A stretch of DNA of 64,000 nt from a phage. A program made the translations under genes and the position numbers. The notes under the pieces were generated by a model that was given only the letters and a program-made list of their open reading frames with translations, did no database searches and had not been told where the DNA came from. Position 1 is the first letter of the stretch. Each line of letters starts with the position of its first letter. Shown piece after piece: positions 9,395-61,151 of the stretch. The stretch is taken from assembly GCA_020241125.1 (NCBI GenBank), contig GCA_020241125.1_4708.1. The stretch is one strand, 5' to 3'.

Positions 9395-9467
9395 TTTAAT
9401 CTCCTCTCCCGACTTCAGAGAATTCTTAAAATCCGTTAGTTTTGATAGATAGGGTAAGACGGCATAA

Positions 9468-9490
9468 AAGCATCCCATTACGGGATGCTT
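9468..9490 (-). terminator. hairpin (AAGCATCCC/GGGATGCTT) with UUUUAUGCCG tail in minus sense
   Basis: Inverted repeat directly after stop of 9502..10050. Confidence 0.5.
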
Positions 9491-9501
9491 CATTAATCAG
9501 C

Positions 9502-10102: not shown

Positions 10103-10126
10103 GAGGGGGTATTATCCCACCCCCTC
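10103..10126 (-). terminator. GC hairpin (GAGGGGGT/ACCCCCTC) followed by U-rich tract in minus sense
   Basis: Inverted repeat after stop of 10137..10670. Confidence 0.5.
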
Positions 10127-11047: not shown

Positions 11048-11110
11048 GTTAACCTCAATACGAACATAACCCTCCTCCTTCCCTGTTGGGTTGGAGGAGG
11101 GAATATGCTG

Positions 11111-11425
11111 TTATTCTGTTTTCGGTGTTGAACCGTTCTTCTTGAAGTCGGATTCGTATTTCACGTTAGAATCGAGAACCTCACGAACGGTTTTATCCGT
11201 ACAACCACGAGCGATGTATGCATTAAGATCATCACGTAATTTACGCATCGTTGTTTTATCCGCATCAGAAACATCTGACTTGGTAAGACGGAATGCGATT
11301 GCATCGCGAATTTTATTCAACGTTGCTGGGTTATTACGCTGTTCTGCAAATACCGCTTTGATGAACTTATCGCTATCTTTCGAAGCAATAGCAGCATCAA
11401 GAATCTCAATATGCTTTTCAGACAT
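11111..11425 (-). CDS. hypothetical protein (104 aa)
   Basis: ORF track. Confidence 0.5.
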   Translation of the reverse strand: MSEKHIEILDAAIASKDSDKFIKAVFAEQRNNPATLNKIRDAIAFRLTKSDVSDADKTTMRKLRDDLNAYIARGCTDKTVREVLDSNVKYESDFKKNGSTPKTE

Positions 11426-11476
11426 CTTCTTTCCTTTAATAAACGATCATCGTCATATTCATTGCGCGTGACGTCG

Positions 11477-19262: not shown

Positions 19263-19282
19263 TAAGTAATATAGCCGTGAAA
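19263..19282 (-). promoter_or_regulatory. conserved promoter-like motif, copy 1 (minus sense TTTCACGGCTATATTACTTA)
   Basis: One of four near-identical copies; TATATTAC core ~40 nt upstream of ATG at 19217. Confidence 0.5.
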
Positions 19283-19361: not shown

Positions 19362-19395
19362 CTCCTCCCCAGGAAAGGTGTGGGGAGGAGTTTTT
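19362..19395 (+). terminator. plus-oriented terminator-like hairpin (CTCCTCCCC/GGGGAGGAG + TTTTT) in a divergent intergenic region
   Basis: 9-bp stem followed by T5, ~30 nt upstream of the SNF2 ATG; function unclear. Confidence 0.35.
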
Positions 19396-21507: not shown

Positions 21508-21513
21508 TTAAGA

Positions 21514-21552
21514 AGCTCTGCCTGATGTCAGGCAGAGCTTTATGCTGTATTT
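21514..21552 (+). terminator. intrinsic terminator (12-bp perfect stem AGCTCTGCCTGA/TCAGGCAGAGCT + TTATGCTGTATTTG)
   Basis: Directly after SNF2 stop. Confidence 0.7.
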
Positions 21553-23062: not shown

Positions 23063-23083
23063 AAAAAAAAATAGTTAGCATAT

Positions 23084-23122
23084 CTTCCTCCCTACCCATA
23101 ACGGGCGGGGAGGAAGGTTTTA
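23084..23122 (+). terminator. intrinsic terminator (CTTCCTCCC/GGGGAGGAAG + GTTTTATGG)
   Basis: Follows stop and an A11 run at 23061-23071. Confidence 0.65.
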
Positions 23123-23134
23123 TGGCGTTATGAC

Positions 23135-26006: not shown

Positions 26007-28009
26007 AACGTGATTACATCCTCCGGTTTAGGTTCTTTACGCGGTAAAAGCATGTAGTCGATCGGATGATCTGGCTTCATGGTTGGGATATAACTGTTCG
26101 GGTTTTGGAACGCATCCAGTTGCTCTTGGTGAGCGAACTTCATACTCAAGGAGCGCATGTTCATGTTCTTCTTGAAGGTACTGAAGTATCGTGTTGTTCC
26201 CTGTTTCGGCATGCGATAATCTTTCGTGTGTGGCGAACGAATCATGCTGGCGTAGAGAATAACATCGAGATGCGAAAGGTTCATTCGCAGACGCTGGGCA
26301 CACAGACGATGCCAATAATACAGCACGTTTGCAACTTCTTCCGGCGTTGCTTCGTCTTCCGAAAGGAATCCGGCACTGAAAGAACCTTTCCCGAATTTGA
26401 ACTCACGTTCGATTTCTTTTGCGTATTCCATCATGTTTTTGTGGATTAACGGCATCTGGAATAACGTACGTGAATTGTCCCAATGTTTCAAGTCGAAAAT
26501 CACAATCCCGTCAGACGTCACTTCCCAGCTATGGCGTTTTAGATAACGGATAAACGCTTTACTCGGTACAACAGGACGACCGCAGAAATCGAAATTGACT
26601 TTGAGCTTACGATAGCTTTCATCTTTCCTGTCGTAAATCTCCATATCGCAAAGCGTCATGTTAAACAAACGTTGCGGTATCAGCGAACTAATTTCTTCCG
26701 CTTCGGCTACGTCGTACAACATGTTCGCAAGACCTAACTTCATCTTAATCAGCACGTGTTTACCTTTCAGCTCACGTGCGAGTTTGATGTCGTTCATGTT
26801 CTGGCTGTAGCGAAGGATATGTTGATATTCCGGTGGGATTGGTGCTGTGGATACCGTTGACGAACCATCGTGGTGTTTGGTAGAAAGAATGTTCTGCGTT
26901 ACCTGTTGCGAACAGGTACGCGCTGCGCCATCGCCGACATTATCGGTTAGTGCGAAGTTATGACTTAATTCACCGTAACACGTTGTACATACCCCAGCAG
27001 GATCGGGATGATGGCAATAGTTAACGGAGCGCATGCGTACCGTCGTACCAATCAATTCTTTCATGTGTGGTTGTATCGCTACCAACGAACCGTCATCACG
27101 AATAATGAATCGACCATGGAAGCCACGCAGGTCGGTCTCATCACGGATTGGCATCGGGATGGTCTCTTTACTACCACAATCACCAGGATGAAGTCGTTGT
27201 ACAACCGCTGTCGCTATCTGAAGTTCACGACCGAAATATTCAGACTTTTTAATCTGCTCTTTGTTGAACAGCAACGATTTCGCCGCAGAACGACTTTCTT
27301 TCAAGCTGTCGGGAAGAGAGATCAAACCAGCTGCGTACGACCGCATTACTGGATCACGGAATATCTCGGAGTTAATATCAGTCAAGAATCCACGCATCCC
27401 AATACACTGTAGCACCTGCCCAATCGAAACGTGTTCGGTTCTTACCGCACGTGCAATAGGGTTTGCATGTAACGTTTTATCGGTGCTCAGTACCTTGGTC
27501 AGTTTCTTGTATGCGCTTTCGATACCTTCACGGGTGGGTTCCGCTTCGGCGATGATTTTCTTAACTTCGGGGTGTACAGTAATCTGATAAAAATCATCCG
27601 CGCAAATCGTTGTTACGTATTCCTCCAACGCATACGTAAAGAAGTTATACACATTGTTAAACATATCGAACAATGCTTTCCAGAGAACCTCACGATTCTC
27701 TTGTGGGTAAGCATACATGCATTGACGATACGCGGCGCTTTGCAACGCAACCGATGAACCCGCTGTGAACTTGCGTTTATCAACCAGGTTCTCTTTTGTC
27801 AGTGGTGTCTCAGGATACATGCGATGCACAGACCAGTGCATGTAACTAAAGAAAATGCGTCGCGCACGTAATTCATGAACGCCATCGTCCATCTCGATAT
27901 ATACGCGGTCATTAGGCTGTGCCCACTCGAATACCTCATCAACCGGCCAGTGCATAAGCTCGCGTGCCCTCACACGACGTTTCGTGGTGGTCGTCTGTGT
28001 TGTAGTCAT
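26003..28009 (-). CDS. multisubunit RNA polymerase beta'-like subunit, C-terminal module (668 aa)
   Basis: GVCTTCYGELSHNFALTDNVGDGAARTCSQQVTQNILSTKHH resembles the E. coli beta' trigger-loop region CAHCYGRDL...GEPGTQLTMRTFHIGG. Confidence 0.6.
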   Translation of the reverse strand: MTTTQTTTTKRRVRARELMHWPVDEVFEWAQPNDRVYIEMDDGVHELRARRIFFSYMHWSVHRMYPETPLTKENLVDKRKFTAGSSVALQSAAYRQCMYAYPQENREVLWKALFDMFNNVYNFFTYALEEYVTTICADDFYQITVHPEVKKIIAEAEPTREGIESAYKKLTKVLSTDKTLHANPIARAVRTEHVSIGQVLQCIGMRGFLTDINSEIFRDPVMRSYAAGLISLPDSLKESRSAAKSLLFNKEQIKKSEYFGRELQIATAVVQRLHPGDCGSKETIPMPIRDETDLRGFHGRFIIRDDGSLVAIQPHMKELIGTTVRMRSVNYCHHPDPAGVCTTCYGELSHNFALTDNVGDGAARTCSQQVTQNILSTKHHDGSSTVSTAPIPPEYQHILRYSQNMNDIKLARELKGKHVLIKMKLGLANMLYDVAEAEEISSLIPQRLFNMTLCDMEIYDRKDESYRKLKVNFDFCGRPVVPSKAFIRYLKRHSWEVTSDGIVIFDLKHWDNSRTLFQMPLIHKNMMEYAKEIEREFKFGKGSFSAGFLSEDEATPEEVANVLYYWHRLCAQRLRMNLSHLDVILYASMIRSPHTKDYRMPKQGTTRYFSTFKKNMNMRSLSMKFAHQEQLDAFQNPNSYIPTMKPDHPIDYMLLPRKEPKPEDVITL

Positions 28010-28640: not shown

Positions 28641-28753
28641 AATCTCATTTCCTCTTATACGTTAGGATAGATGACATGTTGGATATACGTTGCCTTTGCA
28701 TATATTGCTTTATTTCCGTCAGAAATAACGGAAAATAAAAACAACGACATAGT

Positions 28754-28784
28754 TCCCTCCCACCTCCACATGGGAGAGGGAGGG
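28754..28784 (-). terminator. hairpin (CCCTCCC...GGGAGGG) followed by U-run in minus sense
   Basis: After stop of 28798..29160. Confidence 0.5.
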
Positions 28785-29534: not shown

Positions 29535-29612
29535 ACCAGGGATCCTCTTTAAGTCATCACATTCTAGTGTTAAGCAGTTAAAATAAACCGTTCCTTTTAT
29601 CAGCATAAACAT

Positions 29613-29641
29613 CCTCCTCCCACCACATGGGCAGGAGGAGG
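29613..29641 (-). terminator. hairpin (CCTCCTCCC/GGAGGAGG) with UUUAUGCUG tail in minus sense
   Basis: After stop of 29653..30063. Confidence 0.5.
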
Positions 29642-32633: not shown

Positions 32634-32662
32634 CCCTCCCACAGCGTAAAGCGTAGGGAGGG
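32634..32662. terminator. hairpin CCCTCCC...GGGAGGG between convergent genes
   Basis: Lies between stops of 32275..32628 (+) and 32694..33974 (-). Confidence 0.5.
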
Positions 32663-32693
32663 CATTTATACCGTCGTTCGATGACTTAATACA

Positions 32694-37257: not shown

Positions 37258-37280
37258 AAAGGTAATATAAGCGTGAATAA
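37258..37280 (-). promoter_or_regulatory. conserved promoter-like motif, copy 2 (minus sense TTATTCACGCTTATATTACCTTT)
   Basis: TATATTAC core ~58 nt upstream of ATG 37204. Confidence 0.5.
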
Positions 37281-39090: not shown

Positions 39091-40233
39091 TCATGGCAAC
39101 GTATCAAGCCAAGCAGAAACCTTTAAGGCATCAACGTTCGGGTATTTATTACGAATGCGTTCGACCAACAAACGCTTAACGTTGTCCTTTGTCAAGTCTC
39201 CACCTTTCTCGATAACGTTATTGACAAAACTGTTCTTTAATAGCGACTGGTTGTTCTTGGCGTCCGTTTTAATTGACCAAACGAAGCCTGGATACAAAGA
39301 AGGGATAGAACGAAACGTTTTCGCCGCATCGTCTTCCTTATCGCAGCGTATTCGGATATGATCACCCTTCTTCAATGGAGCCAATTCCCGTTCCAACACA
39401 CGGACAATTTCATCTCCAACAAGACCATGCAGTTTTATCGTCTTGTAGACATCTGCTTTCTTGTTTTCAACAAATTCCCACTGGTCGTTAAACGTTTCCG
39501 TTAACATATAACGGAGATACCCTTTTGGACCTTCTTCACCGTGCGCCAAGCGACCGAACGAACCGCCAACCATGATACGTCCTTTCTGGGATTGTAAGTG
39601 AATATGTCCGCTCACGATCCATCCCTGGGTCTTCTCCACCATTGCGTTATACGCATCGCTGCTATGAACACATGTCGCTTTTAACGCTTCTGGTGGAAGC
39701 TGATATTCAAACGCACCGTGCATCAGAATGAAGCCCGGCGATCCCTTCTCATCAATAAGTCGGTTCACGGCTGACAACGTCACATCCGGGTCGTGGCTGT
39801 AGTTATCTGGAAGATAAAGTACTTTTAAACCAAAGTCTTCATCAACCATGCAGAGGTCATCGTAATAACGAACTTTCGCTCCTATCTCCATGACCTCGTT
39901 CTGTTCAACGAACCACTGACTTTGCTTCTGGTCGTGTAAGTTGGTACCCTCAAGAAAGATCAACGTAATATCGTGTTTTCTTGCATACCGTAACAACCAG
40001 GTACCCCAGGCACGAACAGCAACCACGTCACTCGTCACAAACGTCGTGATACGATCGAAGACATCACCACTGAACGTAATCACATCAAGCAGCGCAGGAT
40101 CTTCTTTTGTAATGTAATAACGCAGCTGGCTAATCAGGTTTACTGTCGGTGTTTGACGATGGATAAAGTGAATATCCGACAAGTTGATTCCACGTAATAC
40201 CCCAGGCGTTTTATTTCGACTGAAGTCTCGCAT
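39091..40233 (-). CDS. calcineurin-like metallophosphoesterase, possible SbcD/Mre11-type nuclease (380 aa)
   Basis: Ordered motifs INLSDIH (D-x-H), FSGDVFD (GD-x-x-D), GTNLHD (GNHD-like), LMHGAF, SGHIH (GHxH). Confidence 0.5.
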   Translation of the reverse strand: MRDFSRNKTPGVLRGINLSDIHFIHRQTPTVNLISQLRYYITKEDPALLDVITFSGDVFDRITTFVTSDVVAVRAWGTWLLRYARKHDITLIFLEGTNLHDQKQSQWFVEQNEVMEIGAKVRYYDDLCMVDEDFGLKVLYLPDNYSHDPDVTLSAVNRLIDEKGSPGFILMHGAFEYQLPPEALKATCVHSSDAYNAMVEKTQGWIVSGHIHLQSQKGRIMVGGSFGRLAHGEEGPKGYLRYMLTETFNDQWEFVENKKADVYKTIKLHGLVGDEIVRVLERELAPLKKGDHIRIRCDKEDDAAKTFRSIPSLYPGFVWSIKTDAKNNQSLLKNSFVNNVIEKGGDLTKDNVKRLLVERIRNKYPNVDALKVSAWLDTLP

Positions 40234-41015
40234 CAGAATTCCTCTAAGTTGCTGCTGCTAATAGTCCCCGTCGTAGACGGCATGTTTCTACTACCCACCG
40301 ACGCAGTTGTTGAAGAGGTTCTGGCTAGATTCAATCCGTTTAATAACCCACACTCTTTTACCGTACGACGTGAACCATCACGAACGTCATAAAGAGGTAC
40401 GTTATAATGGTCAAAAATCCGAAGCCATTGCACGTAATCAGCAACAACATGGTCTTTGCTTTCATTCGGGGCAAAGCGATCAAGCTGATGGTCGACGTAA
40501 GCTTTAGCGCTTTCAGGATTGAAGTTATACTGTCGACGTGCTTTGTCCACCATCGCGAGGAAACATGTATTGGGGTCACGATTGATGTATGAACGCGTCC
40601 GGATAAAGATAGCCGGTACCGTAAACAGAACCTTGTTGTTATTCCCATCAGCAACGATGTTAACCGCACGATGCGGTTGGCCTGCTATCTTACACCAATC
40701 GTGAACAATGGTGCTATTACTCAGCATCTCCGCGTATTCAGGATCCTGGGAAAACATTCCTGCGAACGGATACAAGAAATGTTTAACGAACAGCGATTCA
40801 GGCAGGATGTTGGGACGCGTCATCTCCTGTAAACCTTTTCGTAGAAGCTCGCTATTGTCTACCAGCTCCTGCCACATGTCCGGTCGTGTTTTCGGGATGG
40901 ACGGATCCTGAGCGCGGCGAATGCGCTCTTCCTCATTTACAACCACTACCCCAGCCGGATACCCCAATAAATCCGTTCCTTCGCTAACGTTGCTGTTAGT
41001 TTGGCGCGCCTTCAT
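40233..41015 (-). CDS. hypothetical protein (260 aa)
   Basis: ORF track. Confidence 0.5.
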   Translation of the reverse strand: MKARQTNSNVSEGTDLLGYPAGVVVVNEEERIRRAQDPSIPKTRPDMWQELVDNSELLRKGLQEMTRPNILPESLFVKHFLYPFAGMFSQDPEYAEMLSNSTIVHDWCKIAGQPHRAVNIVADGNNNKVLFTVPAIFIRTRSYINRDPNTCFLAMVDKARRQYNFNPESAKAYVDHQLDRFAPNESKDHVVADYVQWLRIFDHYNVPLYDVRDGSRRTVKECGLLNGLNLARTSSTTASVGSRNMPSTTGTISSSNLEEF

Positions 41016-41403
41016 TTACTTCCTCCTGCCACTTGATAAAATTACCACGCTCGGATCGCAGAACACCACCCAGATCGTACGATATACCTTTCTCTGTGAC
41101 AATCCCCCCAATCTGGAGATCAACACGTTCCGTCGTCGGATCGATATACTTGACACGGACTTTCAATTCCACGCGATCGTAATAACGCATTAAATAATCA
41201 TACAACATCCGGTACGTCGCATCTTCCAATTTGGGTGCGCTATACTGCGACGTTGCAATGAGGTACGGTAGTGAAACGATGGAACCTTGATAGCAATACG
41301 ACTGGGAATAATTCGATATTGCGAAATTGGTCATTAACCCATCCAGCTTTTTACCCGACGCGGTTAAAAAGCTCGACAGTCCCGGTAACGGATTCGATGC
41401 CAT
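40996..41403 (-). CDS. hypothetical protein (135 aa)
   Basis: ORF track. Confidence 0.45.
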   Translation of the reverse strand: MASNPLPGLSSFLTASGKKLDGLMTNFAISNYSQSYCYQGSIVSLPYLIATSQYSAPKLEDATYRMLYDYLMRYYDRVELKVRVKYIDPTTERVDLQIGGIVTEKGISYDLGGVLRSERGNFIKWQEEVNEGAPN

Positions 41404-41416
41404 GAGGAACTCCTCT

Positions 41417-41866
41417 TTAAGCGTAATTCATTCCAACCAATCTATCGTAGTTAGGCATATGCCCTAACTCCAGTTCGACGGGCATGGATACATTGGTGCG
41501 TGGTGCGTAAAATGTTCGCGTATGCATATCGATATACCCACAGTCCAAATAAACAATATCGGACAACTCCGCTGGATGTTTAGGTGCGGGAATCTTTAAG
41601 CGATTGTAACACTCAAGCTGCCACCAGGCATGAAAAAAGTTATTGTAAGCGTACGATTTACTGTTAGCAACTTTAAGTCCGTAGATCACCCATAACGCCG
41701 CCATGAAGTTGGTCGCGTTAATTCGCATCGGTTGTTCATTATTGAGCATGTACGTGTAGGTAAACAACGGTGTGTTACCATCACCGAAACGTCCGACCAA
41801 GGTATTGTTTGTGCGTTCGACCTCAAAGGAAAAATGCTGGCTGCTATTGCCATCAAAATGGATCAT
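41417..41866 (-). CDS. hypothetical protein (~149 aa; start uncertain)
   Basis: Track ORF starts at a GTG inside a hairpin (41956); in-frame ATGs at 41890 and 41866, the latter with GAGGAG RBS. Confidence 0.4.
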   Translation of the reverse strand: MIHFDGNSSQHFSFEVERTNNTLVGRFGDGNTPLFTYTYMLNNEQPMRINATNFMAALWVIYGLKVANSKSYAYNNFFHAWWQLECYNRLKIPAPKHPAELSDIVYLDCGYIDMHTRTFYAPRTNVSMPVELELGHMPNYDRLVGMNYA

Positions 41867-41985
41867 TCCGTTCTCCTCAAGCTTTTTCATTTCATAGAGT
41901 GGTGGAAATTCGTAGAAAGTTACAAAAATAAAAAAGAATGGGCAGCCCCTCCCCACCCGAAGGTAGGGAGAGACCGCAAATATAC

Positions 41986-42450
41986 TTAAACCAAAGCTGC
42001 GATAACGTCGTTAACATTACGGCCTCGCAACTCTGCCGCTAAACGAATAACTTCATCCAGGGAACGGTTTGTACGAATCTTGGCCACTTTCCAATTTTCA
42101 GGATACTGTTCGAAGTTAAGCAACCAAGTCATTACCTTTGCTTGTTCCATACCGTTGAGTTTGATTGTCGTGCGCGGATTGGCTTTGAACCACTTCTTGC
42201 TCAGCTGCGCCATACGGCGAACAGGGTAAGCGTAAGCGCGAGTCCAGTCTTTGGACAGATTGTCGAGTAATTCACAGTAGCTGTTGTCGTAGTCTTTGTT
42301 GATACGACGTAATAACCAGTTGGCGGTCATCTGATAAAGTTTATCATCTTCACGTAACCGCATACCCGCTACTGCTAAATAAATGATAAGACCTGCGCCC
42401 AGGATGAGAGACAGGATAAACAGAATTTGGGTTTCTTGTGCTAAAGTCAT
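41986..42450 (-). CDS. predicted membrane protein (154 aa, N-terminal TM segment)
   Basis: MTLAQETQILFILSLILGAGLIIYLAVAGMRL; GAGGA RBS; promoter-like motif upstream. Confidence 0.55.
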   Translation of the reverse strand: MTLAQETQILFILSLILGAGLIIYLAVAGMRLREDDKLYQMTANWLLRRINKDYDNSYCELLDNLSKDWTRAYAYPVRRMAQLSKKWFKANPRTTIKLNGMEQAKVMTWLLNFEQYPENWKVAKIRTNRSLDEVIRLAAELRGRNVNDVIAALV

Positions 42451-42540
42451 TTTACTATCCTCGGATTTCGTTAGGATTTAATTTCCAATATAAGGGCAAT
42501 GTGATATGCCTTATACAGTCGATTGATGTTGTACATCACT

Positions 42541-42560
42541 TAAGTAATATAGCCGTGAAA
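42541..42560 (-). promoter_or_regulatory. conserved promoter-like motif, copy 3 (minus sense TTTCACGGCTATATTACTTA)
   Basis: Identical over 20 nt to copy 1; ~85 nt upstream of ATG 42450. Confidence 0.5.
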
Positions 42561-42569
42561 AATGTTGGA

Positions 42570-43367
42570 TTAACGTGTTCTCCTATCACGATGCGTATAC
42601 GACTGAAGACCGATGTCCATATGCGGTAACGTCAGCGTCTGCCAGATCTGTCGTGCGTAGCGATCGAGCGTATGATCGTCAGTAACACAATCGACGGGTT
42701 CGATGAGGTGGGTCGTATACTGGCTTTTCTCAGAGAAAGGTTCGATGTTAGCTGTATCGCCTAATCCGCTTTTCACGGTGAAGACAAGACGTGTGACGAT
42801 CATCGCCTTATGCTGCTGTTCATTATAACGAAGGCTGCGGTATACGGCATAGCTTCCTCCCTTTAAGCTTCGGGTATAACGAAGGTCGGAGGTCGTCTCG
42901 GAAATCTGATACAGCATCCAGTCCAACGTATCACGCCAGTACGCATCATCCACATCAGGAACTGTAATACCATACCGCGTAGGTAGCAGTTCTAAAAGCA
43001 ATTTATAAAGTCCGCGACGCAGACCATGCTCTTCTGTTTCCGATAAACCGTTTCCAACGTAACGTGAAATACGTGTACGTAAATACGTACGGATGAACAT
43101 ATTCGCCATCAGTGTTTTCACTCTGCTACTGGTATCCTCAAAGCGATCAACGCTGAAACTCGTTTCAATCAGCCGTCCATTAAAATACAATGCGGCAACA
43201 TACATCGCGTTATTGCTATCACGTTCAATGTTTAAACGACCGCAGATATTAGCCGCGTCGTTCATGGTAAATTCTAATTTATCGTGTTCGATACGATAGA
43301 TAATATCCTCTTGGGTTGCCAGGCTCGCAATGCGACGGTAGCCCGGAGAAGTACGTTTTACACTCAT
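42570..43367 (-). CDS. hypothetical protein (~265 aa; start at internal ATG with GAGGA RBS)
   Basis: Track ORF starts at 43406 inside the UUUAUGCCG terminator tail; the internal ATG (MSVKRTS) has a proper RBS. Confidence 0.5.
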   Translation of the reverse strand: MSVKRTSPGYRRIASLATQEDIIYRIEHDKLEFTMNDAANICGRLNIERDSNNAMYVAALYFNGRLIETSFSVDRFEDTSSRVKTLMANMFIRTYLRTRISRYVGNGLSETEEHGLRRGLYKLLLELLPTRYGITVPDVDDAYWRDTLDWMLYQISETTSDLRYTRSLKGGSYAVYRSLRYNEQQHKAMIVTRLVFTVKSGLGDTANIEPFSEKSQYTTHLIEPVDCVTDDHTLDRYARQIWQTLTLPHMDIGLQSYTHRDRRTR

Positions 43368-43409
43368 GATTGTCCTCGTTTTCAATTTTAAGATTGCATG
43401 CGGCATAAA

Positions 43410-43434
43410 CCCTCCCCGCCTTATGCGGGGAGGG
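43410..43434 (-). terminator. hairpin (CCCTCCCCGC/GCGGGGAGGG) with GUUUAUGCCG tail in minus sense
   Basis: 10-bp perfect stem after stop of 43450..44088. Confidence 0.55.
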
Positions 43435-43449
43435 CAGCCATTAAATGGA

Positions 43450-44088
43450 TTAACCTAATTTACCACCGGCGATATTGGTGAAATCTTCGCCATCAGGAAC
43501 TTGCAGTAGGATACGTGCCATGTCCCAGTTGGTTAATGTAATTGCTTTATCATCGATACTCAGTTCTGGTAGGTCGAGTTCATGATCATCAAACTCGTAG
43601 GAAATACTCCACGTTTCATCTGTTTTAGGATCGGTTATCAACACACCGTCTGTTACACGCATGTAGTCCGGGTGCAGTTCATTACTGAACGTGCCGAACG
43701 GATCGGTGTAACATTCAGCATACCCCTCGATCTGCTGACGCTGTGCCTTCGTACGTAATTCAGGGCACGCCATGATCAGTTGTCGAGATATGCCGTTTGC
43801 AGCTCGGAAATCCTCCACGGTGTTACATGGCATAACCACATCGTCATGGAAGATGTTCTCCGATTGTCTCAGCAAAGTCTTACGGAGTTCAGCATAGTTT
43901 ATCTGATTGAATGCGTCGAACGTTGCTAACGATTCAGCGTAAAAATGCTTTACGTGTTCGCTTGCGCCGCCGAGGCTATTCATCAGCTTGTGGCCGTACT
44001 CCATAAAGCTTTTATCGAGACCGGAGGACATTTCTCCGAACCTCAGTGCACGATAACTGTCTCGTCCACCTGTAAATATTTGCGCCAT
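43450..44088 (-). CDS. hypothetical protein (212 aa)
   Basis: AGGAGG RBS 9 nt upstream of ATG; follows beta' exon 2. Confidence 0.6.
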   Translation of the reverse strand: MAQIFTGGRDSYRALRFGEMSSGLDKSFMEYGHKLMNSLGGASEHVKHFYAESLATFDAFNQINYAELRKTLLRQSENIFHDDVVMPCNTVEDFRAANGISRQLIMACPELRTKAQRQQIEGYAECYTDPFGTFSNELHPDYMRVTDGVLITDPKTDETWSISYEFDDHELDLPELSIDDKAITLTNWDMARILLQVPDGEDFTNIAGGKLG

Positions 44089-44103
44089 TACAGGCGTCCT
44101 CCT

Positions 44104-44346
44104 TTAGCAATGGTTGTTAGTTGCTTCTATTTCGTCAAGATAAGGTTCTACGTCATCGCCCTCCACGAATTCGTTGAACCAACAGTCAATAGTGGAAATA
44201 ACCGGTGACTGGTGTTCACATTTCTTAGATACCTTAAAAGGTACGTTATTATCCATCATGCCGAGTTCGGGTCGAAAACGCCCGAAATGTTTCGCAGTCC
44301 AAATGTCTGGGACGATATGGTTGTTCATTGCGTCGCCGTCAAAGTC
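44104..44346 (-). CDS. RNA polymerase beta'-like N-terminal subunit, exon 2 (begins at the DFDGD catalytic motif)
   Basis: Reading frame opens 3 codons upstream (UGA) and encodes DFDGDAMNNH...; cf bacterial beta' NADFDGDQMAVH. No RBS; joins exon 1 to give GYNA|DFDGD. Confidence 0.6.
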   Translation of the reverse strand, partial: DFDGDAMNNHIVPDIWTAKHFGRFRPELGMMDNNVPFKVSKKCEHQSPVISTIDCWFNEFVEGDDVEPYLDEIEATNNHC

Positions 44347-44696
44347 CACATATCTTCAGTATGAATCGCTACTTCATACCCGCAGCATTACCTGCAGCTC
44401 CTGGTGTTACCAGGACGGAGAGATCATCTCATCACCCACGAAGGGTGTTCCGCGCTACCCTCAGCGAATTCGAGGGACATGATCGTTGAACCTTCCACCG
44501 ATAATCGGTGGCTAGGCTGCTGATTAAACATTGTACGTTGGGGTGGCATCCTGGTTCAGGACTGTCGTTGAAGCCTCCCAACATCCACTCACTTATTTCC
44601 GCCTTATCGGCTCCCATAAGGGCAGAGTGGCTTTAGCCCGTCTCAGCAATTCACGGAATTCAAGCTCTTCCTTTCAGAAGGCAGGGCCTCATCTGA
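44347..44696 (-). other. putative self-splicing intron (group I-like, 350 nt, no ORF) interrupting the beta' gene
   Basis: Exon 1 frame ends ...KGYNA and exon 2 starts DFDGD, restoring the YNADFDGD motif; 5' exon ends in U and insert ends in G; insert carries GGUUCAACGAUCAUGUC and AAGAUAU near its 3' end (resembling group I R and S elements) and several stem-loops (CCUGGUAACACCAGG). Confidence 0.55.
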
Positions 44697-45947
44697 AGCA
44701 TTGTATCCCTTAAGGATCATCACGCTTAACCCGATGGTATTATCCTGCGGATCGCGTTTAACCTTGGTGATTTCAAGACATTGGTTACTGCTTCGGTCAA
44801 GTGATGGGTTTCGAACAAAACCGCACACAATCCCATCGAACGGTGTATCAGCAATAAGCTCATCGTGCAGCTCACTCATCATCGGATGATAATTACGGAC
44901 ATGTTCCGCAACGAACGCACGTGCTGCTCTCGGTGAATAACCACGATGGAATAACTTGGATTGGATATGTTCTTTATTGGTTAAAGTAAATGGTGCGTAT
45001 GGGAAATGCAGATGATAATAACGATGGTTCGCTGTTATCGAACTGATTACAGTACGCGTGGTGAATGGATGTAATGTACCTAATATGTTTTTACGTGTGA
45101 TACCTTTCTTCTTACCGATGAACTCATCGAAAATCGCCGCATGGTATTGCAGTAGCTTCAATTGCACTTTCGCCATCCAGTTTTCTTTCTTTCTGGCGCT
45201 CAAAGGTGTTGTTGGGTGATAGATACTATTCAACGTACCGATAGCATCGATCGCACCTTCCATTTTGCTATCCGCATAACGACCGGTTGGCGTATTCTCG
45301 ATAACGAACATCATGGCCGCAGGAAAGCTGATATACTGACTGAAGAACTTATCACGATGGATACGGATGAATTCTCGTAGCGTATCAACTTTCTCCGTGT
45401 TCTTCGGTCCGCGTAACGTCGGTCCTTTATACAAGATCTCCATGATGCGATCGAAGTTCTGTATAAAACTATTTACACCGCGACGTATCCCGAATACATC
45501 GAATTGCTGCTCCAGATAGTTCTTGAGTTCGATGGGTCGTTTTACATTTGGACGGTAACTGGCATCAATGAGCCACGTCATCGTTTCAAAGCTTTTGATA
45601 TTCAACTCGCTTGCCAGCACGAGATGGACCAACGGGTTAATGAACGCATCAATTCCTTCAGGAACACGCGCCCAAACCGTCGAACGAATCTCTTGTTCTG
45701 CTGGATAGGTTACAACCGTTTTACAGTTCGGACACACCGTGCCGAGCAGCTCACCACGATTGTAGAAACCACAACCACATTGTGGCGTGATATCCAACGT
45801 ATCGCTGGAGTAAACACGGGTGATAAAACTGTTTAATTTCTTCTTCTCTTCGACGACTTTTGTATCGTAATCATTCAACAAAATCGGCGTGAAAGGAAGT
45901 TCTGCGAGCTGTCTATCGAAACTCACGATATCGAGCATGATGGCCAT
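44697..45947 (-). CDS. RNA polymerase beta'-like N-terminal subunit, exon 1 (417 aa to the GYNA junction)
   Basis: N-terminal zinc finger CGCGFYNRGELLGTVCPNCKTVV (cf beta' CxC...CxxC); TAGGAG RBS; unspliced frame continues 17 codons to a stop. Confidence 0.65.
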
Positions 45948-45989
45948 GGGGTATCTCCTACAAATGAAAAAGAACGTTAGGACGTATAA

Positions 45990-46013
45990 GGGAGGGAGGT
46001 TGCCCTCCCTCCC
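45990..46013 (-). terminator. hairpin GGGAGGGAGG-TTGC-CCTCCCTCCC after the 631-aa gene
   Basis: 10-bp perfect inverted repeat 27 nt after the stop; U-run further downstream. Confidence 0.55.
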
Positions 46014-46039
46014 GTCAGATTACATCGAACGTTCTTCCA

Positions 46040-47935
46040 TTAGAACAGGTTGAATGCCCCACCCATGTTGTTAACGCCAACATTCGGACGATCGCTACGT
46101 GCGTAGATGTTACCGGAGATGTTACCCAGACCACGAGCACGTGCTGCCATGTTACCACGAACAGCGGTACCTGCCAGATGCTGGATGTTCTCAGGACGGA
46201 TGGTGAAGCCAGCATCAGCAGCGGCCTCGATCAGCGCCTGCAGTGCTAACGGATCGAAGTCGTAACGCATTGCCCAGCCGGTTTGTTCCCAGCTACCAGA
46301 CAGAACACGATCAATGATTTCGTGACGAGCGACAACACGCTGAGACATCGTCATATCGGTACGGTCGAAGCTGTCTTCCCAAGCTTCTACGGTATCCGGG
46401 TTAGTGATGTTCATCATGTACAGATCGTCCATATCACGAATATCGTGACGGTGACCATCCTGGTGGTTATAATGACCCAGCGGGATACGGTTACCGGTAG
46501 CGTAGACCAGTGGTGCGCCGTACTGATATTTCTTGCTGAAGCAACCCAGGGTAGTATCATCGAAGGCACGGAAGAGTGCTTTGTAACCTTCGGAGATTTC
46601 CCGGACTTCACCTTCAACTTTGCCCGTATAGATCTTCTCAGCCGCCGGGATCATACGCAGCAGCCAGCTGTATTCGCCTTCTTCCGGTACGTCGATAGAA
46701 ATCAGCAGAGACGGATACAGTACCTGTTGCAGGAACTTGTAAATCTGCTCGTTGGTTTGAGTAGACAGATCCAGCGGTGCGGTAACTTCCGGATCCAGTA
46801 CCATCGCCAGAGCACCCGGGTTATGCGGACCAATACCACGAGCAGCGTTGCTGATTAAAGACTGTGCCCACGCCATACCGCTGTTCAGCGTAGCGATGGT
46901 GCCAATCAGACCCAACACGAAAGTGTTCGGCGTGAACGCATCCAGCTCCAGCGGGTAAGCGCTGGTCATCACGTAACGCGGTTGGTATTGTACAGTCGGC
47001 GGTACCGGATAACCGTTAACCAGAACAGGGCCTTGGTTGAAGGTCGGGTTCTGCGGGCTGTAGGTCAGGTCAATGTAACCGGTGGTTGCGACCAGACGCT
47101 GCTGACTATCGTAATCGCTCATCGCTTGACGGATGCGGTTAGAGATAGTTACAGTGATGTCAGAACGCACAGGGTTACCAACAATATCGCTGTCCTGCAT
47201 ACCGCTGGTGTTGTACTGAACGCTGCTGATTGGCTGATCGCTTGCCATCATGCCCAGGTTGAACTGCGGCAGACCCAGTTTATCGCCGAGACGGATTTCG
47301 ATCGCGGTTTGGATTGCGTTATCTGCAGCAGACAGCAGGGTGGTTGCCAGATGCGCAGATTCAGCGGTGATTTCATTGGTCACCACAGCCAGACCAGCGA
47401 TACGAGCAGTACCATTAGACTTACCACCGATAGCTGCATACATTGCCGCCATGACTTCGTTGATGAACGTACCGTTCAGGTTATCAACCCAGGTACGCGG
47501 CACCAGAATGTTACCATGCGGGCCTTGTTCTTCACGACGCGGCAGCGGAGCCAAACCGGCAACCAGTGGAAGCACATAACCGAAGAAGTGGTTATGGTCA
47601 CCAACTTTTGCACCGCTCATAACAACCAGGGTCGGATACGGTACACTGTATTGGTTAGGATCGACGGTCACCATGATGAAGTCGTCTTTGAATCCTTTAT
47701 CTTCCAGTTCTTTTTCCATCAGACGACGGAGATTCAGTACCTGCTCGGAGCCAGTATTACGGCTAATACGACGGCTCAGTGTACGGTTGATCGTACGCAT
47801 CGTATGAGTTACTTTAGGCTGGCCAGCAAAATCTGCAGCGGTTTCCAGCGCCTCATCAGCACGTTGTGCGGTGCGGGTTTCAGCTGCACGAATTTCTACA
47901 TTATCGTTACCGTTATTACGTACGTCTAAGCCCAT
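46040..47935 (-). CDS. chmA: candidate chimallin / phage-nucleus shell protein (631 aa); major capsid protein not excluded
   Basis: Large ORF with strongly optimal codon usage, AAGAGGAA RBS, promoter-like motif 70 nt upstream, directly upstream of the beta'-N gene (order as recalled for phiKZ gp54-gp55), ~8 kb from PhuZ. No motif confirmation possible by eye. Confidence 0.45.
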   Translation of the reverse strand: MGLDVRNNGNDNVEIRAAETRTAQRADEALETAADFAGQPKVTHTMRTINRTLSRRISRNTGSEQVLNLRRLMEKELEDKGFKDDFIMVTVDPNQYSVPYPTLVVMSGAKVGDHNHFFGYVLPLVAGLAPLPRREEQGPHGNILVPRTWVDNLNGTFINEVMAAMYAAIGGKSNGTARIAGLAVVTNEITAESAHLATTLLSAADNAIQTAIEIRLGDKLGLPQFNLGMMASDQPISSVQYNTSGMQDSDIVGNPVRSDITVTISNRIRQAMSDYDSQQRLVATTGYIDLTYSPQNPTFNQGPVLVNGYPVPPTVQYQPRYVMTSAYPLELDAFTPNTFVLGLIGTIATLNSGMAWAQSLISNAARGIGPHNPGALAMVLDPEVTAPLDLSTQTNEQIYKFLQQVLYPSLLISIDVPEEGEYSWLLRMIPAAEKIYTGKVEGEVREISEGYKALFRAFDDTTLGCFSKKYQYGAPLVYATGNRIPLGHYNHQDGHRHDIRDMDDLYMMNITNPDTVEAWEDSFDRTDMTMSQRVVARHEIIDRVLSGSWEQTGWAMRYDFDPLALQALIEAAADAGFTIRPENIQHLAGTAVRGNMAARARGLGNISGNIYARSDRPNVGVNNMGGAFNLF

Positions 47936-48004
47936 TTGGGATTCCTCTTTTCTTAAACTTTATTAAATGACGTCATTGAATCAGCTTCTACTCGCTCATT
48001 CACC

Positions 48005-48024
48005 TAGGTAATATAACCCTGAAA
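48005..48024 (-). promoter_or_regulatory. conserved promoter-like motif, copy 4 (minus sense TTTCAGGGTTATATTACCTA)
   Basis: TATATTAC core ~73 nt upstream of ATG 47935. Confidence 0.5.
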
Positions 48025-48189: not shown

Positions 48190-49284
48190 ATGTTTCGTGT
48201 TTTAAATAACCTCCCGCGAACATCATCGGGTGTGCAACCCGTCCCTCAGAAAGACTATCTAATACGCGAAGTTCAAAGAAACCTACAGACAATCCAGAAC
48301 CACTATCAAGGTTTTACCTTCGCGGTTCAGAGCGATCACATCCTTGCGTTGCTGCTCGCACAGCTCCCTATGAGATACGACATCTCAGTACAAACTTACT
48401 ACGACATGATTCTCGATCTTACTCCAGAATTGGGTAATCGTGTTAAGTTGACAACATCAAGATACGCGGGTAAGTTATTCGACGGTGCTTTCTATCCGGG
48501 ATTGCACGAAGCTATTATCGCAACCGGTGAAAGTCGTCTTATTTCACGTGACGTTCTTGACAACTGGCGTAATTGGTCACCGGTTAGAATCGTGACGCAC
48601 CCATACGCAAATCTTCGTTACATTCCTCTTCACCGAAAGCCGGTTGAAGAAGGACGAGGTTTTGCGGTCATTATGGTTGATGTACCTTTATTAGCGCTAC
48701 AGTATCGAATGTGGTCTTTGGTCATGGGTCATAACGTCGACGGCAAATGGGTGGTTAAAGAACCGGTTACAAGCTTCCTTGCGAGTTTTCCGTTGGTTAA
48801 CGCATTATACTCACACAACGATGTTGTTATACGCAATCGTTGTTTGTGGGTATCTCCGGCTAAGAATCCACTCAAATCACCAATTTACGTTAACGACCTT
48901 GATAACGTATTCAGTCAAGTCGTTCTGTCCGTACAGCATCATTTATTACGAAGAAGACGAAGCTACACCGACATGCTTAAACAGATACCGAGTTTATACG
49001 GGGATCAGTACCAAGCAACCCGAATGGGTTACACCGTCGATCTTCGGCAAACGCGATGGGCAAGGGATCTGGGTTGTCTGTCATTATGGCAACAACTCGT
49101 CACGTTGCAAAACGTATCTGAAAGCGTCGGGTTCAGCAGTCAAATCGATAATGACCTGTACCGTGCTGCCGACCGGAGTCTAAAAGAAGGTAACTGGGAG
49201 TCCTCTCCGTTACCTGGCGATTTAAGACGTGAAGTTATCGCACAGGTTGCCGACCTCTTAAAAATTCTTCCCGCTGGTGCATAA
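48190..49284 (+). CDS. hypothetical protein (364 aa)
   Basis: Plus ORF with GGAG RBS; divergent from the 631-aa gene. Confidence 0.55.
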   Translation: MFRVLNNLPRTSSGVQPVPQKDYLIREVQRNLQTIQNHYQGFTFAVQSDHILALLLAQLPMRYDISVQTYYDMILDLTPELGNRVKLTTSRYAGKLFDGAFYPGLHEAIIATGESRLISRDVLDNWRNWSPVRIVTHPYANLRYIPLHRKPVEEGRGFAVIMVDVPLLALQYRMWSLVMGHNVDGKWVVKEPVTSFLASFPLVNALYSHNDVVIRNRCLWVSPAKNPLKSPIYVNDLDNVFSQVVLSVQHHLLRRRRSYTDMLKQIPSLYGDQYQATRMGYTVDLRQTRWARDLGCLSLWQQLVTLQNVSESVGFSSQIDNDLYRAADRSLKEGNWESSPLPGDLRREVIAQVADLLKILPAGA

Positions 49285-49288
49285 TAAC

Positions 49289-49344
49289 CTCCCTCCTCCC
49301 TTGCATCCTCCCAACCCGTAAGGGAAGGGAGGATGGGGTGGTGG
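49289..49344. terminator. compound GC hairpin (TCCTCCC...GGGAGGA) between convergent genes
   Basis: Between stops of 48190..49284 (+) and 49351..51504 (-). Confidence 0.45.
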
Positions 49345-49350
49345 GTTATG

Positions 49351-51504
49351 TTACTCTGCGGTTTCTTGCTTCGGTAAATAACTTGCTGCGATGTCTTGGG
49401 CTAACAATGTATTGTTTTTATTCGAGATGAAAATACCATAACTTTCCATTAACGCGTAATACGAACGCACGAGCGTAGAGATCAATCGACGAATATCCAT
49501 ACCTTGAATAAAGATATCAGGAAGCCCGGAGGCTTCGATCACCGGTAATGGTATCGTTAAGTTGCTTATCGTTTTCTTATCGTTACGTACAATCCAATCA
49601 CGGAAACGTTGTTGTAACCCTTTATCCTCCCAGGAATCAATCCAATCGTTAAGAAGCGTTTTGTTCTTCGTCGCCAACGGCACACGAACCCCAACATAGG
49701 GTGGTTCCTGGCAATGGCCGTACGATTGAGCAAACACCTCTTCCCACATATCGTAAGACTGTTTCGTTACTGCAACATGCGGTTTCACTTTAACACGTGT
49801 TAAGAAATCAGGATCACCACGTTTCATGGACTCAACGATTTCGTTTTCTAACGAGATAATATCGTCAAGAACCAATCGAATGCTGATCTTCTCGTTACGT
49901 AACAGCTTATCCATGATACCACACATCATGCGTTCAACACGTTTGACGATCATTTTTGGTGCTGACGCATCGCGCATAACCGGACCTTTCAATTCCAGCT
50001 TCGGTGGATTGATAGGAACCCCTTCACGCATGGTCATGTAACCGTAATAGTTTTTACCCATCGAGGTTAACGACAGAATCAAGAACATATATTCGTTCTT
50101 CATTTCCATCACGTACATATGCTCTTTCGCCACACCGATATTACCAGAACACATCGCCATCAGATGAACCGTAATCTGCGTAACCAGATAGATAAGCGTG
50201 TTTGCTAAGCGCGTCGAAACTGGATTGATCTCCATATTTCCAAATCGCCACTGAACCCACTCCTGGCAGGTAAACACCGTCGAGTCGGTATCAGACAACA
50301 CACCCACTTCACGGATTGCTGATGGGAAAGCATAAACACCAGCCGGTTGGTTCTCGGTACGCCAGAACGCCATAATCAAATCAGCATAGCTTTGAATACG
50401 CTGTAGCATTAATTTTGTCGTTGCTGCAGTAAGACGATAACCAAGCTCATTTCCTTTTTCTAGCGCTACGTAAATCGCTTCCCCATTCAAGAACTCCGTA
50501 CATTGTGCTGTAATCCAAGCGACCGTGTTGTTATCCATGGAAGCAATAATGGCTTTAGCCTCTTCCATCGTTTCAACAGGTTCGGATGCCAGCTCGCATA
50601 ACGAATCAAGAAAATCTCGAACAAATTCAGGATTAAGCTCACGTAACGAGTACAGGTTATTGCTATACATGTAGCAGGCGCGTTCCAGTGGGGTTAAACC
50701 GGTAATTAACTCCCGGATAGTCAGTTCTTTCTCTGGGTCGAAAGTATATCGATGCAAGCATTTCGATACGTTAGCCCAAACCTCTTCCGGCGTAGGGTAA
50801 TGTAGTTTGTATTTTACCATTACCTGTTCAATGGCTTTACGATCGCTGTTGCGGACAATACTCACGATGTTTTCAATTGCGATATCACAATCGTAATAAT
50901 GGAAATTGCCCGCAAGGAAGCGTTCGTTGTTCGCATTGGCTGAACCTGAAGCACAGCGACACGTTGTCGTTAAACTTGGATGCGCAATTGGATTATAAAA
51001 AGGGTTAAACTTGGACGCCTGGGTTCCTGACAAACTGTTGTTATCTAACTTGGTGTTGGTTTGTCGTTTATCGTGTAACTCAGCTTCATCTTTACGTCCG
51101 TGTGCTTGCGCTATCGACATTTGTTTCTTTTGTTTCTTACGCAACTTACCGTTTTCAACCGCAAAGTCGCTTAGCACACTGGAACGTGTTTCACGTGGAT
51201 AACAGTTAGCCCACACCGGCGTGATAATTAAATTATTTTCTTTAATATCATTGAAGTATTGGCTGAACTTGATGACTTCTTTTTCTCGATTTCCTTCGGT
51301 GCGCTGTGTTAATACAAGGCAGTCGGGATCAACCATCCCGTATTTTCCACCAGGACGAACCGTATCAAGGACAAACTGCAACGCTTCCTGCTGTGATATC
51401 CCACGCATGCGCATTAAGAACAGGGTATAATCCTGTACCGCTTCTTTGGTCATATCCAACGTACGGCCATATCCGTTTTCATCGTAAAAGAACGGATTTT
51501 CCAT
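49351..51504 (-). CDS. hypothetical protein (717 aa); candidate divergent family-B-like DNA polymerase catalytic module
   Basis: VGVLSDTDSTVF resembles polymerase motif C (YGDTDS); downstream GKNYYGYM resembles the KxY motif; motifs A and B not convincingly found. Confidence 0.55.
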   Translation of the reverse strand: MENPFFYDENGYGRTLDMTKEAVQDYTLFLMRMRGISQQEALQFVLDTVRPGGKYGMVDPDCLVLTQRTEGNREKEVIKFSQYFNDIKENNLIITPVWANCYPRETRSSVLSDFAVENGKLRKKQKKQMSIAQAHGRKDEAELHDKRQTNTKLDNNSLSGTQASKFNPFYNPIAHPSLTTTCRCASGSANANNERFLAGNFHYYDCDIAIENIVSIVRNSDRKAIEQVMVKYKLHYPTPEEVWANVSKCLHRYTFDPEKELTIRELITGLTPLERACYMYSNNLYSLRELNPEFVRDFLDSLCELASEPVETMEEAKAIIASMDNNTVAWITAQCTEFLNGEAIYVALEKGNELGYRLTAATTKLMLQRIQSYADLIMAFWRTENQPAGVYAFPSAIREVGVLSDTDSTVFTCQEWVQWRFGNMEINPVSTRLANTLIYLVTQITVHLMAMCSGNIGVAKEHMYVMEMKNEYMFLILSLTSMGKNYYGYMTMREGVPINPPKLELKGPVMRDASAPKMIVKRVERMMCGIMDKLLRNEKISIRLVLDDIISLENEIVESMKRGDPDFLTRVKVKPHVAVTKQSYDMWEEVFAQSYGHCQEPPYVGVRVPLATKNKTLLNDWIDSWEDKGLQQRFRDWIVRNDKKTISNLTIPLPVIEASGLPDIFIQGMDIRRLISTLVRSYYALMESYGIFISNKNNTLLAQDIAASYLPKQETAE

Positions 51505-51579
51505 AAATCCTCCAAAAGTTATTTAGTCTGTCTACATCATCTCGTATATCTGTTAAAAAAGAAGGACGGCATAAAAAAG

Positions 51580-51607
51580 AACCGATCCAGCCGAAGCCAG
51601 ATCGGTT
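51580..51607 (-). terminator. hairpin AACCGATC...GATCGGTT flanked by A/T runs (bidirectional), CUUUUUUAUGCCG tail in minus sense
   Basis: In the 300-bp intergenic region after stop of 51804..52217. Confidence 0.55.
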
Positions 51608-55601: not shown

Positions 55602-55623
55602 GCTTTCTCCTACACGGCATAAA

Positions 55624-55645
55624 AGCCTGCCCCGAAGGACAGGCT
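55624..55645 (-). terminator. hairpin AGCCTG-CCCCGAAGGA-CAGGCT with CUUUUAUGCCG tail in minus sense
   Basis: After stop of 55655..55855. Confidence 0.45.
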
Positions 55646-55654
55646 CGATAGAAC

Positions 55655-60843: not shown

Positions 60844-61098
60844 GATAGAAATCCTTAGTATGTTTGATATGTTGTTTAATTAACATATTAAGTTTAAAAG
60901 AGGTTATGTTTTACGTATTGTTAATAACGTATTCTTATCTCTATTAAGTTATGTTCTATCTAAAGATAGTAAACAGATATAATGCTCCCCACCTCCCCAT
61001 TCTCCCAAGTAATACTGGCCTACCGGCCCTCTCCTTTTTAAGGGAGAGAGTAAGCATTCAGTATTGCTCAAATGAATAAGCAAAACAGTATAAACTTA

Positions 61099-61122
61099 CC
61101 GTCTCGAGATAACTCGAGACGG
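61099..61122 (-). terminator. perfect palindromic hairpin CCGTCTCGAG-ATAA-CTCGAGACGG with U-rich tail in minus sense
   Basis: 30 nt after stop of 61152..61505. Confidence 0.6.
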
Positions 61123-61151
61123 CGTAGTAGTATCTGTTTATCTCTTTTATG

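Follow-up and report, generated by a model that had tools for sequence, protein, structure and literature searches.

What is a GC-rich hairpin followed by a short conserved tail doing between the genes gp184 and gp183 of a nucleus-forming jumbo phage? In the window, by which we mean the whole 64,000-nucleotide stretch of phage DNA analyzed here, this hairpin lies on the minus strand at 43410-43434, about 40 nt ahead of the likely gp183 start (43369). A preliminary description of this DNA had assigned it to a family of gene-end hairpins, many sharing a UUUAUGC(C/U)G tail, and had proposed that the tail is either a terminator element or an overlapping UAUG-type promoter for the next gene. The feature is genuine and departs strongly from randomness, and the results presented here support the terminator half of that proposal, whereas the promoter half is unsupported as the reason for the tail.

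A few indels aside, the entire window is colinear with 123-189 kb of Escherichia phage vB_EcoM_Goslar, with 96.1% identity between window positions 40000-48000 and Goslar. Goslar is a nucleus-forming jumbo phage of E. coli belonging to the Chimalliviridae, and the phage of the window is itself a chimallivirus; its genes, which mostly lie on the minus strand, include those for the nuclear shell protein, PhuZ, the DNA polymerase, and several RNA polymerase subunits.

Hairpins and tails in the window

The sites that combine a hairpin with a tail in the window are listed here with their strand and surroundings.

43401-43435, minus strand: the flagged site, hairpin 43410-43434 (CCCTCCCCGC-ATAAG-GCGGGGAGGG) and tail TTTATGCCG at 43409-43401; the sense RNA reads gp184 stop codon, 15 nt, CCCTCCCCGC-AUAAG-GCGGGGAGGG, then UUUAUGCCG; MFE -28.7, z -4.5
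9459-9491, minus strand: hairpin 9467-9491 and tail TTTATGCCGT, 10 nt past the gp143 stop codon
17435-17462, minus strand: hairpin GCCCTCCC-UUCG-GGGAGGGU and tail TTTATGCTG, 9 nt past the gp157 stop codon
21513-21548, plus strand: 13-bp hairpin and tail (TT)TATGCTGT, between the helicase gene gp160 and gp161; Goslar has TTCATG
29601-29641, minus strand: hairpin CCTCCTCCTGCC...GGTGGGAGGAGG, spacer AUG, and tail TTTATGCTG, 11 nt past the gp170 stop codon
51566-51607, minus strand: 12-bp hairpin with UUCG loop, spacer CUUU, and tail TTTATGCCGT, 75 nt upstream of the DNA polymerase gene
55614-55646, minus strand: 10-bp hairpin with UUCG loop and tail TTTATGCCGT, between gp235 and gp236
11060-11111, both strands: double hairpin 11070-11101 at the convergent gp145/gp146 junction, tails aaTATGCTGT (plus) and tTATGTTCGT (minus); MFE -27, z -4.7
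23074-23127, both strands: hairpin 23084-23116 at the convergent gp161/gp162 junction, tails GTTTTATGGCG (plus) and aTATGCTAAC (minus)
32634-32674, plus strand: CCCTCCC...GGGAGGG hairpin and tail CATTTATACCGT (TATGCCGT in Goslar) at the convergent gp172/gp173 junction; minus-strand tail TTATCTTAAG
45980-46013, minus strand: reversed-arm hairpin GGGAGGGAGG-GCAA-CCTCCCTCCC and tail TTATACGTCC, between chmA and the nvRNAP beta' gene
49283-49355, both strands: large hairpin at the convergent gp245/DNA polymerase junction, tails tTATGTTACT (plus) and ttatTATGCACC (minus)
28745-28784, minus strand: hairpin CCCTCCCTCTCC...GGTGGGAGGG and aacTATGTCG, the tail ATG doubling as start codon of the tiny gp167 ORF
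61085-61123, minus strand: 11-bp hairpin (61098-61123, TTTATACTGT) and aagTTTATACTGT, a TATA variant of the tail, 28 nt past the gp227 stop codon
57794-57828, plus strand: hairpin CCTCCCTCG...CGAGGGAGG and degenerate tail TATTTGCCGT, 13 nt past the gp233 stop codon and within the 3' end of the converging gp232

A stable hairpin was found at every one of the 13 coordinates named in the preliminary description, which had overlooked two further members, 11070-11101 (bidirectional) and 61098-61123. Arms of the CCCTCCC/GGGAGGG type, taken there as the mark of the family, are present at about 9 of the 13, while 9468, 21514, 51580, and 55624 are GC hairpins of other sequence. The 12 sites that were folded (9 of them among those 13) gave RNA MFE values of -15.7 to -28.7 kcal/mol, with z between -2.5 and -5.5. 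The Goslar record annotates as putative terminators four of the seven sites with an exact tail (9459-9491, 21513-21548, 51566-51607, and 55614-55646) and leaves 43410 unannotated; the TATAC variant seen at 61085-61123 also occurs in a validated terminator of phage 201phi2-1 (TTS 230027). An Rfam search of the window returned no family, and gene-end hairpins at 10103, 7186, 34002, 24379, and 41942 lack a TATG tail.

Where at least seven tails had been claimed, exactly seven sense-strand copies of TTTATGCYG are present in the whole window (minus strand at 9468, 17443, 29609, 43409, 51575, and 55623, plus strand at 21539), against 1.13 expected, and none of 100 shuffles reaches that number. All seven sit immediately 3' of a stable hairpin when read in the sense of the upstream gene, and four continue with T. 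In intergenic DNA the count is six, the seventh copy being masked by a mis-called ORF; since only 0.088 copies are expected there and 0 of 2000 dinucleotide shuffles reach six, the tail is enriched relative to shuffled intergenic sequence. By themselves, neither TATG in intergenic DNA (66 vs 56) nor the degenerate tail TTATKYYGT (10 vs 7.1) is enriched in the window.

Although the 9-mer of the preliminary description does recur, the invariant core is TATG(C)YG(T), and the U run is not part of it. Members in both Goslar and the window have AA, CT, or TC ahead of TATG and no U tract, and in the full Goslar genome, which we assembled from six pieces, many gene-end hairpins lead through AA, CT, or TC into TATGCYGT. 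What is fixed is the distance to the stem: when Goslar, 50 kb of phiKZ, and 72 loci on jumbo-sized metagenome contigs (among the matches listed) are pooled, 96 of the 384 hairpin-strand records have TATG starting 1-2 nt past the last G:C pair, with mostly 0-5 records at each of the other offsets, and the bases 3' of TATG are Y Y G T. The tails of the window and Goslar differ at three sites (G to A, T to C, and one indel), and the tail is therefore not strictly required; these three changes are close to the intergenic average and, at 96% identity, uninformative about tail conservation beyond background.

The signal extends well beyond Goslar. An IMG/VR scan for CCCTCCC-loop-GGGAGGG-N0-3-TTTATG recovered at least 120 loci; among the matches listed, at least 74 lie in at least 27 contigs of 180 kb or more, with at least 8 loci from a single contig, and several of these contigs encode homologues of the Goslar RNA polymerase, DNA polymerase, or PhuZ at 23-35% identity. 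Of 239 records for jumbo-contig hairpins outside the search pattern (again among the matches listed), 108 have TATG no more than 8 nt from the stem, compared with 17 that have TTTT there.

Gene-end placement and the chimallivirus terminator class

The elements begin 5-31 nt past co-directional stop codons, in sense orientation. Using the deposited Goslar annotation, we scanned 20 convergent and 20 divergent junctions of equal total length for a hairpin with dG of -14 or lower and TATG within 6 nt. This combination occurs at 16 of the 20 convergent junctions but at 0 of the 20 divergent ones (Fisher p=1.5e-7), and 11 of the 16 positive junctions carry it on both strands. Hairpin and TATG therefore mark gene ends, and the tail is present even where it has no gene to promote.

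Comparison of the stems and loops is consistent with an element that works as RNA. At 9468, an A-U pair in the window is C-G in Goslar, both sides having changed in compensatory fashion, and one stem pair at 43410 varies from C-G in the window through U.G in Goslar to U-A in a metagenome locus (L041). Among hairpins with TATG on a single strand, the UUCG or GNRA loop falls on that strand in 16 cases and on the opposite strand in 5 (p=0.027). G.U oppositions in the stems number four and A.C oppositions one, a comparison that is underpowered because the stems are almost perfect.

Such elements have counterparts in Pseudomonas relatives. Transcript ends of phiKZ were mapped by ONT-cappable-seq, and the motif BCCYCCCCHWWDGGGRRGGBYTTATKYYGT was found at 61 mapped terminators (Putzeys et al. 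2024, PMC10914365). In 201phi2-1, an equivalent motif A (n=59) has been described, and eight terminators were validated in reporter constructs, where they halted transcription between two reporters by the host polymerase with phage proteins absent (PMC11512511). The phiKZ sequence, which we inspected directly, has the same architecture of hairpin and tail as Goslar, and phiKZ, 201phi2-1, and the Goslar clade are all chimalliviruses with two multisubunit RNA polymerases. Like the published motif, the Goslar-clade element is a GC stem-loop, commonly CCYCCCC/GGGRRGG, followed at once by (Y)TTAT-K-YY-G-T, and it likewise sits after genes and is bidirectional at convergent pairs. The literal 30-nt phiKZ consensus has no match in the window at up to 3 mismatches, and GGBYTTATKYYGT has none either, because the Goslar-clade spacer is 1 nt shorter and the loops vary, the tail itself being no different. 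Unlike in the phiKZ motif, the Goslar-clade tail thus lies 1 nt nearer the stem, its K is nearly always G with C as the next base (TATGCYG), many of its stems are not of the CCCTCCC type, and a long double-hairpin subfamily dominates convergent junctions. The combination of hairpin and TATG is best explained as the Goslar-clade member of a known chimallivirus terminator class, the motif of which has already been published for relatives.

To locate the RNA end within the motif, we fetched the sequence at the printed coordinates of the eight validated 201phi2-1 termination sites (PMC11512511). All eight consist of a hairpin followed by a TTTATG, TTATATG, TTTATAC, or AATATG tail, and in seven of them the RNA was mapped to end on the Y that immediately precedes the conserved G, 8 nt past the last G:C pair, as in GGCTGGGC-TTTATGC[C]G, with the mapped end bracketed. 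The tail is therefore the last RNA made in 201phi2-1, and the G is the next base, an arrangement typical of intrinsic termination. By homology, RNA 3' ends in the window are predicted at 43402 (C), 9461, 17436, 21546, 29602, 51568, and 55616. Together with the position past stop codons, the restriction to convergent as opposed to divergent junctions, and the compensatory changes in the stems, the presence of the motif at mapped 3' ends of relatives supports the terminator reading of the preliminary description.

These elements share with canonical Rho-independent terminators a GC-rich hairpin and A/U-rich first tail positions and, to judge from 201phi2-1, release about 8 nt past the stem and activity with the host polymerase in reporters. 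They differ in having no U tract (at least 5 U within 8 nt); instead, there are about 4 U in 8 nt, some members have AA-UAUG, and a specific, conserved UAUGYY↓G stands in for the tract. A canonical terminator scan of the window, in which 5 T in 8 nt were required, found 21 candidates where 19.1 are expected, with no enrichment, and missed both 43410 and 55624. Standard finders that look for a U tract will accordingly under-call terminators in Goslar-like genomes.

How release might come about is suggested by the geometry of the tail. The consensus elemental pause of bacterial and other multisubunit RNA polymerases is G(-10) Y(-1) G(+1), and for the bacterial enzyme it reportedly comes from NET-seq studies of 2014. 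When the RNA ends on the Y that precedes the conserved G, position -10 of the element is a G of the purine-rich 3' arm, as in that consensus, which was defined on cellular polymerases and not on phage enzymes. We propose that the nascent RNA would fold into the GC-rich hairpin, in which pyrimidines often dominate the 5' arm and purines the 3' arm and the loop is often UUCG or GNRA, and that the polymerase would then make the conserved tail of 7-9 nt, N1-2-UAUG-Y-Y, with release of the RNA at the second Y and the conserved G as the next, unincorporated base. In place of a U tract, the tail would offer an A/U-rich proximal hybrid together with a Y(-1)/G(+1) step and a G at -10, a geometry that fits the elemental pause.

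We consider it likely that the elements are factor-independent (intrinsic-type) terminators of a Goslar-like chimallivirus, of the same class as those of phiKZ and 201phi2-1. This reading supplies predicted transcript ends for a Goslar-like phage, Goslar being a main phage-nucleus model. A hairpin-phased UAUGYY↓G replaces the U tract from Pseudomonas to E. coli chimalliviruses, and its conservation despite only about 25-35% identity between their proteins points to a property of their shared, unusual RNA polymerases.

Alternative readings of the tail

The tail also contains the four bases of a promoter. In phiKZ, the beta-like subunit gp123 has a pocket that binds the late promoter core, 5'-TATG-3' with G as +1, in its non-template strand, and the polymerases concerned are homologous. 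Because TATG is this core, a secondary restart at co-oriented junctions can be envisaged, in which the hairpin would end upstream transcription and the tail TATG would act as nvRNAP promoter core with its G as +1; we regard this as unlikely, and we hold the same doubt about the companion proposal that the next co-directional gene is re-initiated 17-80 nt upstream of its start codon. Goslar gp039, which is encoded outside the window, is 29% identical to phiKZ gp123 and keeps 7 of 14 pocket residues (S144, F151, K158, K190, H331, S334, and Q466), with 2 conservative changes and 5 differences, and the gaps between genes leave no room for another promoter (53 nt at 55624). TATGCYG is also found at 17 of 23 co-oriented but only 7 of 26 convergent junctions (p=0.0016), and a Goslar RNA-seq study (10.1101/2023.09.20.558163) marks the nvRNAP beta' transcription start within about 91 nt of the start codon, an interval that corresponds to roughly the whole chmA-beta' intergenic region and contains hairpin 45990. 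However, hairpin and TATG are present just as much where no gene lies ahead in the same direction, and at convergent junctions often on both strands, and are missing from all 20 divergent junctions, where promoters must lie, while TATG alone is unenriched in intergenic DNA as noted above. Unlike a phiKZ late promoter, the tail TATG is fixed 1-2 nt past a hairpin, continues with YYGT, and marks gene ends, whereas P119L, the model late promoter, is not preceded by a hairpin. Transcripts of 201phi2-1, moreover, extend 2 nt past the putative start G before ending, and in their searched text the phiKZ and 201phi2-1 transcriptome papers (PMC10914365, PMC11512511) contain no occurrence of TATG, report no starts at terminator tails, and leave the overlap of the tail with the TATG promoter core unremarked. 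That overlap is directly testable, as the enzymes have already been purified, and it invites a further, rather unlikely idea, namely that TATG serves the phage polymerase at both transcript ends, the promoter pocket of gp123 or gp039 also capturing TATG 1-2 nt past a hairpin. Capture could lead to a stall with release 2 nt later at Y↓G, or to re-initiation without leaving the DNA. If this were so, the presence or absence of a hairpin would decide whether TATG is a stop or a start, which could help explain the specificity of a promoter core of only 4 bases; against it, the structure paper calls the pocket incomplete in the transcribing complex.

Termination also has to be weighed against readings in which the polymerase does not respond to the element at all. 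One is that the hairpin and tail form an RNA 3'-end tag for stability, processing, or nuclear export, read post-transcriptionally by a nuclease or a phage RNA-binding or export factor and not as a release signal. The arm sequence itself (CCYCCC/GGGRGG), beyond mere pairing, recurs across phages whose proteins are just 23-35% identical, and GG↓UUU resembles an RNase E-type site. mRNA also has to exit the phage nucleus (PMC11077065), yet eCLIP of ChmC gave binding near start codons and no motif (PMC11077065), the 201phi2-1 ends lie 8 nt past the stem and not at its base, which fits release and not exonucleolytic trimming, and the terminators worked in two-reporter constructs lacking phage proteins (PMC11512511), so we find a tag improbable. 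A DNA-level palindromic repeat, whether a protein-binding site, a cruciform, or a REP-like mobile element accumulating between genes, would account for stems that are nearly perfect palindromes and for a double-hairpin subfamily of about 32 nt, the copies of which, at 12 or more Goslar loci, are highly similar in sequence. It is nonetheless very improbable given that the asymmetric tail tracks the direction of transcription, that the U.G intermediate and the UUCG/GNRA loops make sense solely in sense-strand RNA, and that divergent intergenic regions of similar total length have no such repeats. Finally, the GGAGG of the 3' arm and an AUG 3-4 nt on could be read as a Shine-Dalgarno sequence and start codon for short ORFs or N-terminal extensions. 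The GGGAGGG-UUU-AUG spacing is Shine-Dalgarno-like, and at two of the seven sites, 43406 and 29606, the AUG shares the reading frame of the following gene; the Goslar RefSeq annotation in fact starts gp183 at the tail AUG (43406). The other five tail AUGs open ORFs of merely 9-18 codons, the putative Shine-Dalgarno sequence is buried in a stable stem (about -16 to -29 kcal/mol), conservation after the AUG is at the nucleotide level (YYGT) and on both strands at convergent junctions, and gp183 has a better start, with GAGGA, at 43369. This reading is scarcely credible, and we reject the tail AUG as a conserved start codon. The preliminary description had instead seen it as a false start that misleads ORF finding, and this is right for 43406 and extends to another lured start (29612/29606), but not for 9493, which is an ATG 5' of the hairpin overlapping the upstream stop codon, with the tail AUG of that site (9465) out of frame. 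At least one annotated start codon, that of gp183, is corrected by these results.

Related signals and neighboring features

Most Goslar convergent junctions share a double hairpin of about 32 nt, CCCTCYTCC-WW-CCC-GTAA-GGG-WW-GGARGAGGG, with high sequence similarity among copies, as at Goslar 27746-27777, 71990-72021, and 93445-93476 (L003-L006) and window 11070-11101. We class it as a repeat family of its own inside the terminator class.

Two further patterns were seen among the metagenomic matches. In phiKZ-like contigs (IMG/VR L009, L017, L024-L026, L045, L084, L086, L088-L090, and others), the hairpin is often preceded on its 5' side by ACATAGGC or CATAAAGC, which complements the tail GCTTTATG with two G.U pairs, so that TATG is equally distant on both strands; this flank is not included in the published terminator consensus. 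Another set of loci (IMG/VR L007, L008, L023, L030, L038, L050, L069, L092, L101, L102, L115, and L123) has CCCTCCC...GGGAGGG with U-rich ...TTTTATG tails followed by TCG(T/A) or TTG. Their contigs come from human-gut and other metagenomes and measure 6-65 kb, plus one of 200 kb; four encode a weak homologue of Goslar gp178 (23-24% identity), and these contigs may represent a separate phage lineage with a related signal.

Strong hairpins with ordinary U-tract tails and no TATG tail also exist in the window, at 19362-19390 (plus strand, UUUUUAUC) and 41942-41977 (minus strand, CCAUUCUUUUUUAUU). The former lies in a divergent region, 35 nt upstream of the helicase gene, and because a terminator is unexpected there, it may be a leader attenuator.

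Differences in gene content between the window and Goslar were also noted. Positions 8510-9404 are an insertion missing from Goslar and encode a protein of 294 aa that contains a DUF7448 domain (E=1.9e-23). Translation of it probably begins at 9394, and the ORF-finder start at 9493 would read through the terminator hairpin. Conversely, comparison of window 44643-44700 with positions 11195-12660 of Goslar L002 shows that the HNH endonuclease gene and the group I intron of the Goslar nvRNAP beta' gene are missing in the window, which has one unbroken ORF of 434 codons. On the 3' side of the beta' gene, a non-coding stretch of 299 nt (44344-44642, minus strand) is kept in Goslar and folds at -106.9 kcal/mol (z -2.37). 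Rfam held no family for this structured gap at 44.3-44.6 kb, which could be a small RNA or an intron remnant.

Finally, CACGGYTATATTAC occurs in four copies in the window where 0.62 are expected, all on the minus strand, at 19266-19279, 37262-37275, 42544-42557, and 48008-48021. Each copy lies upstream of a minus-strand gene, chmA (nuclear shell) among them, and the copies share the longer context TTCACGGCTATATTACTTAnGTGA; by analogy, they look like AT-rich promoters of the early (virion polymerase) class known from phiKZ.
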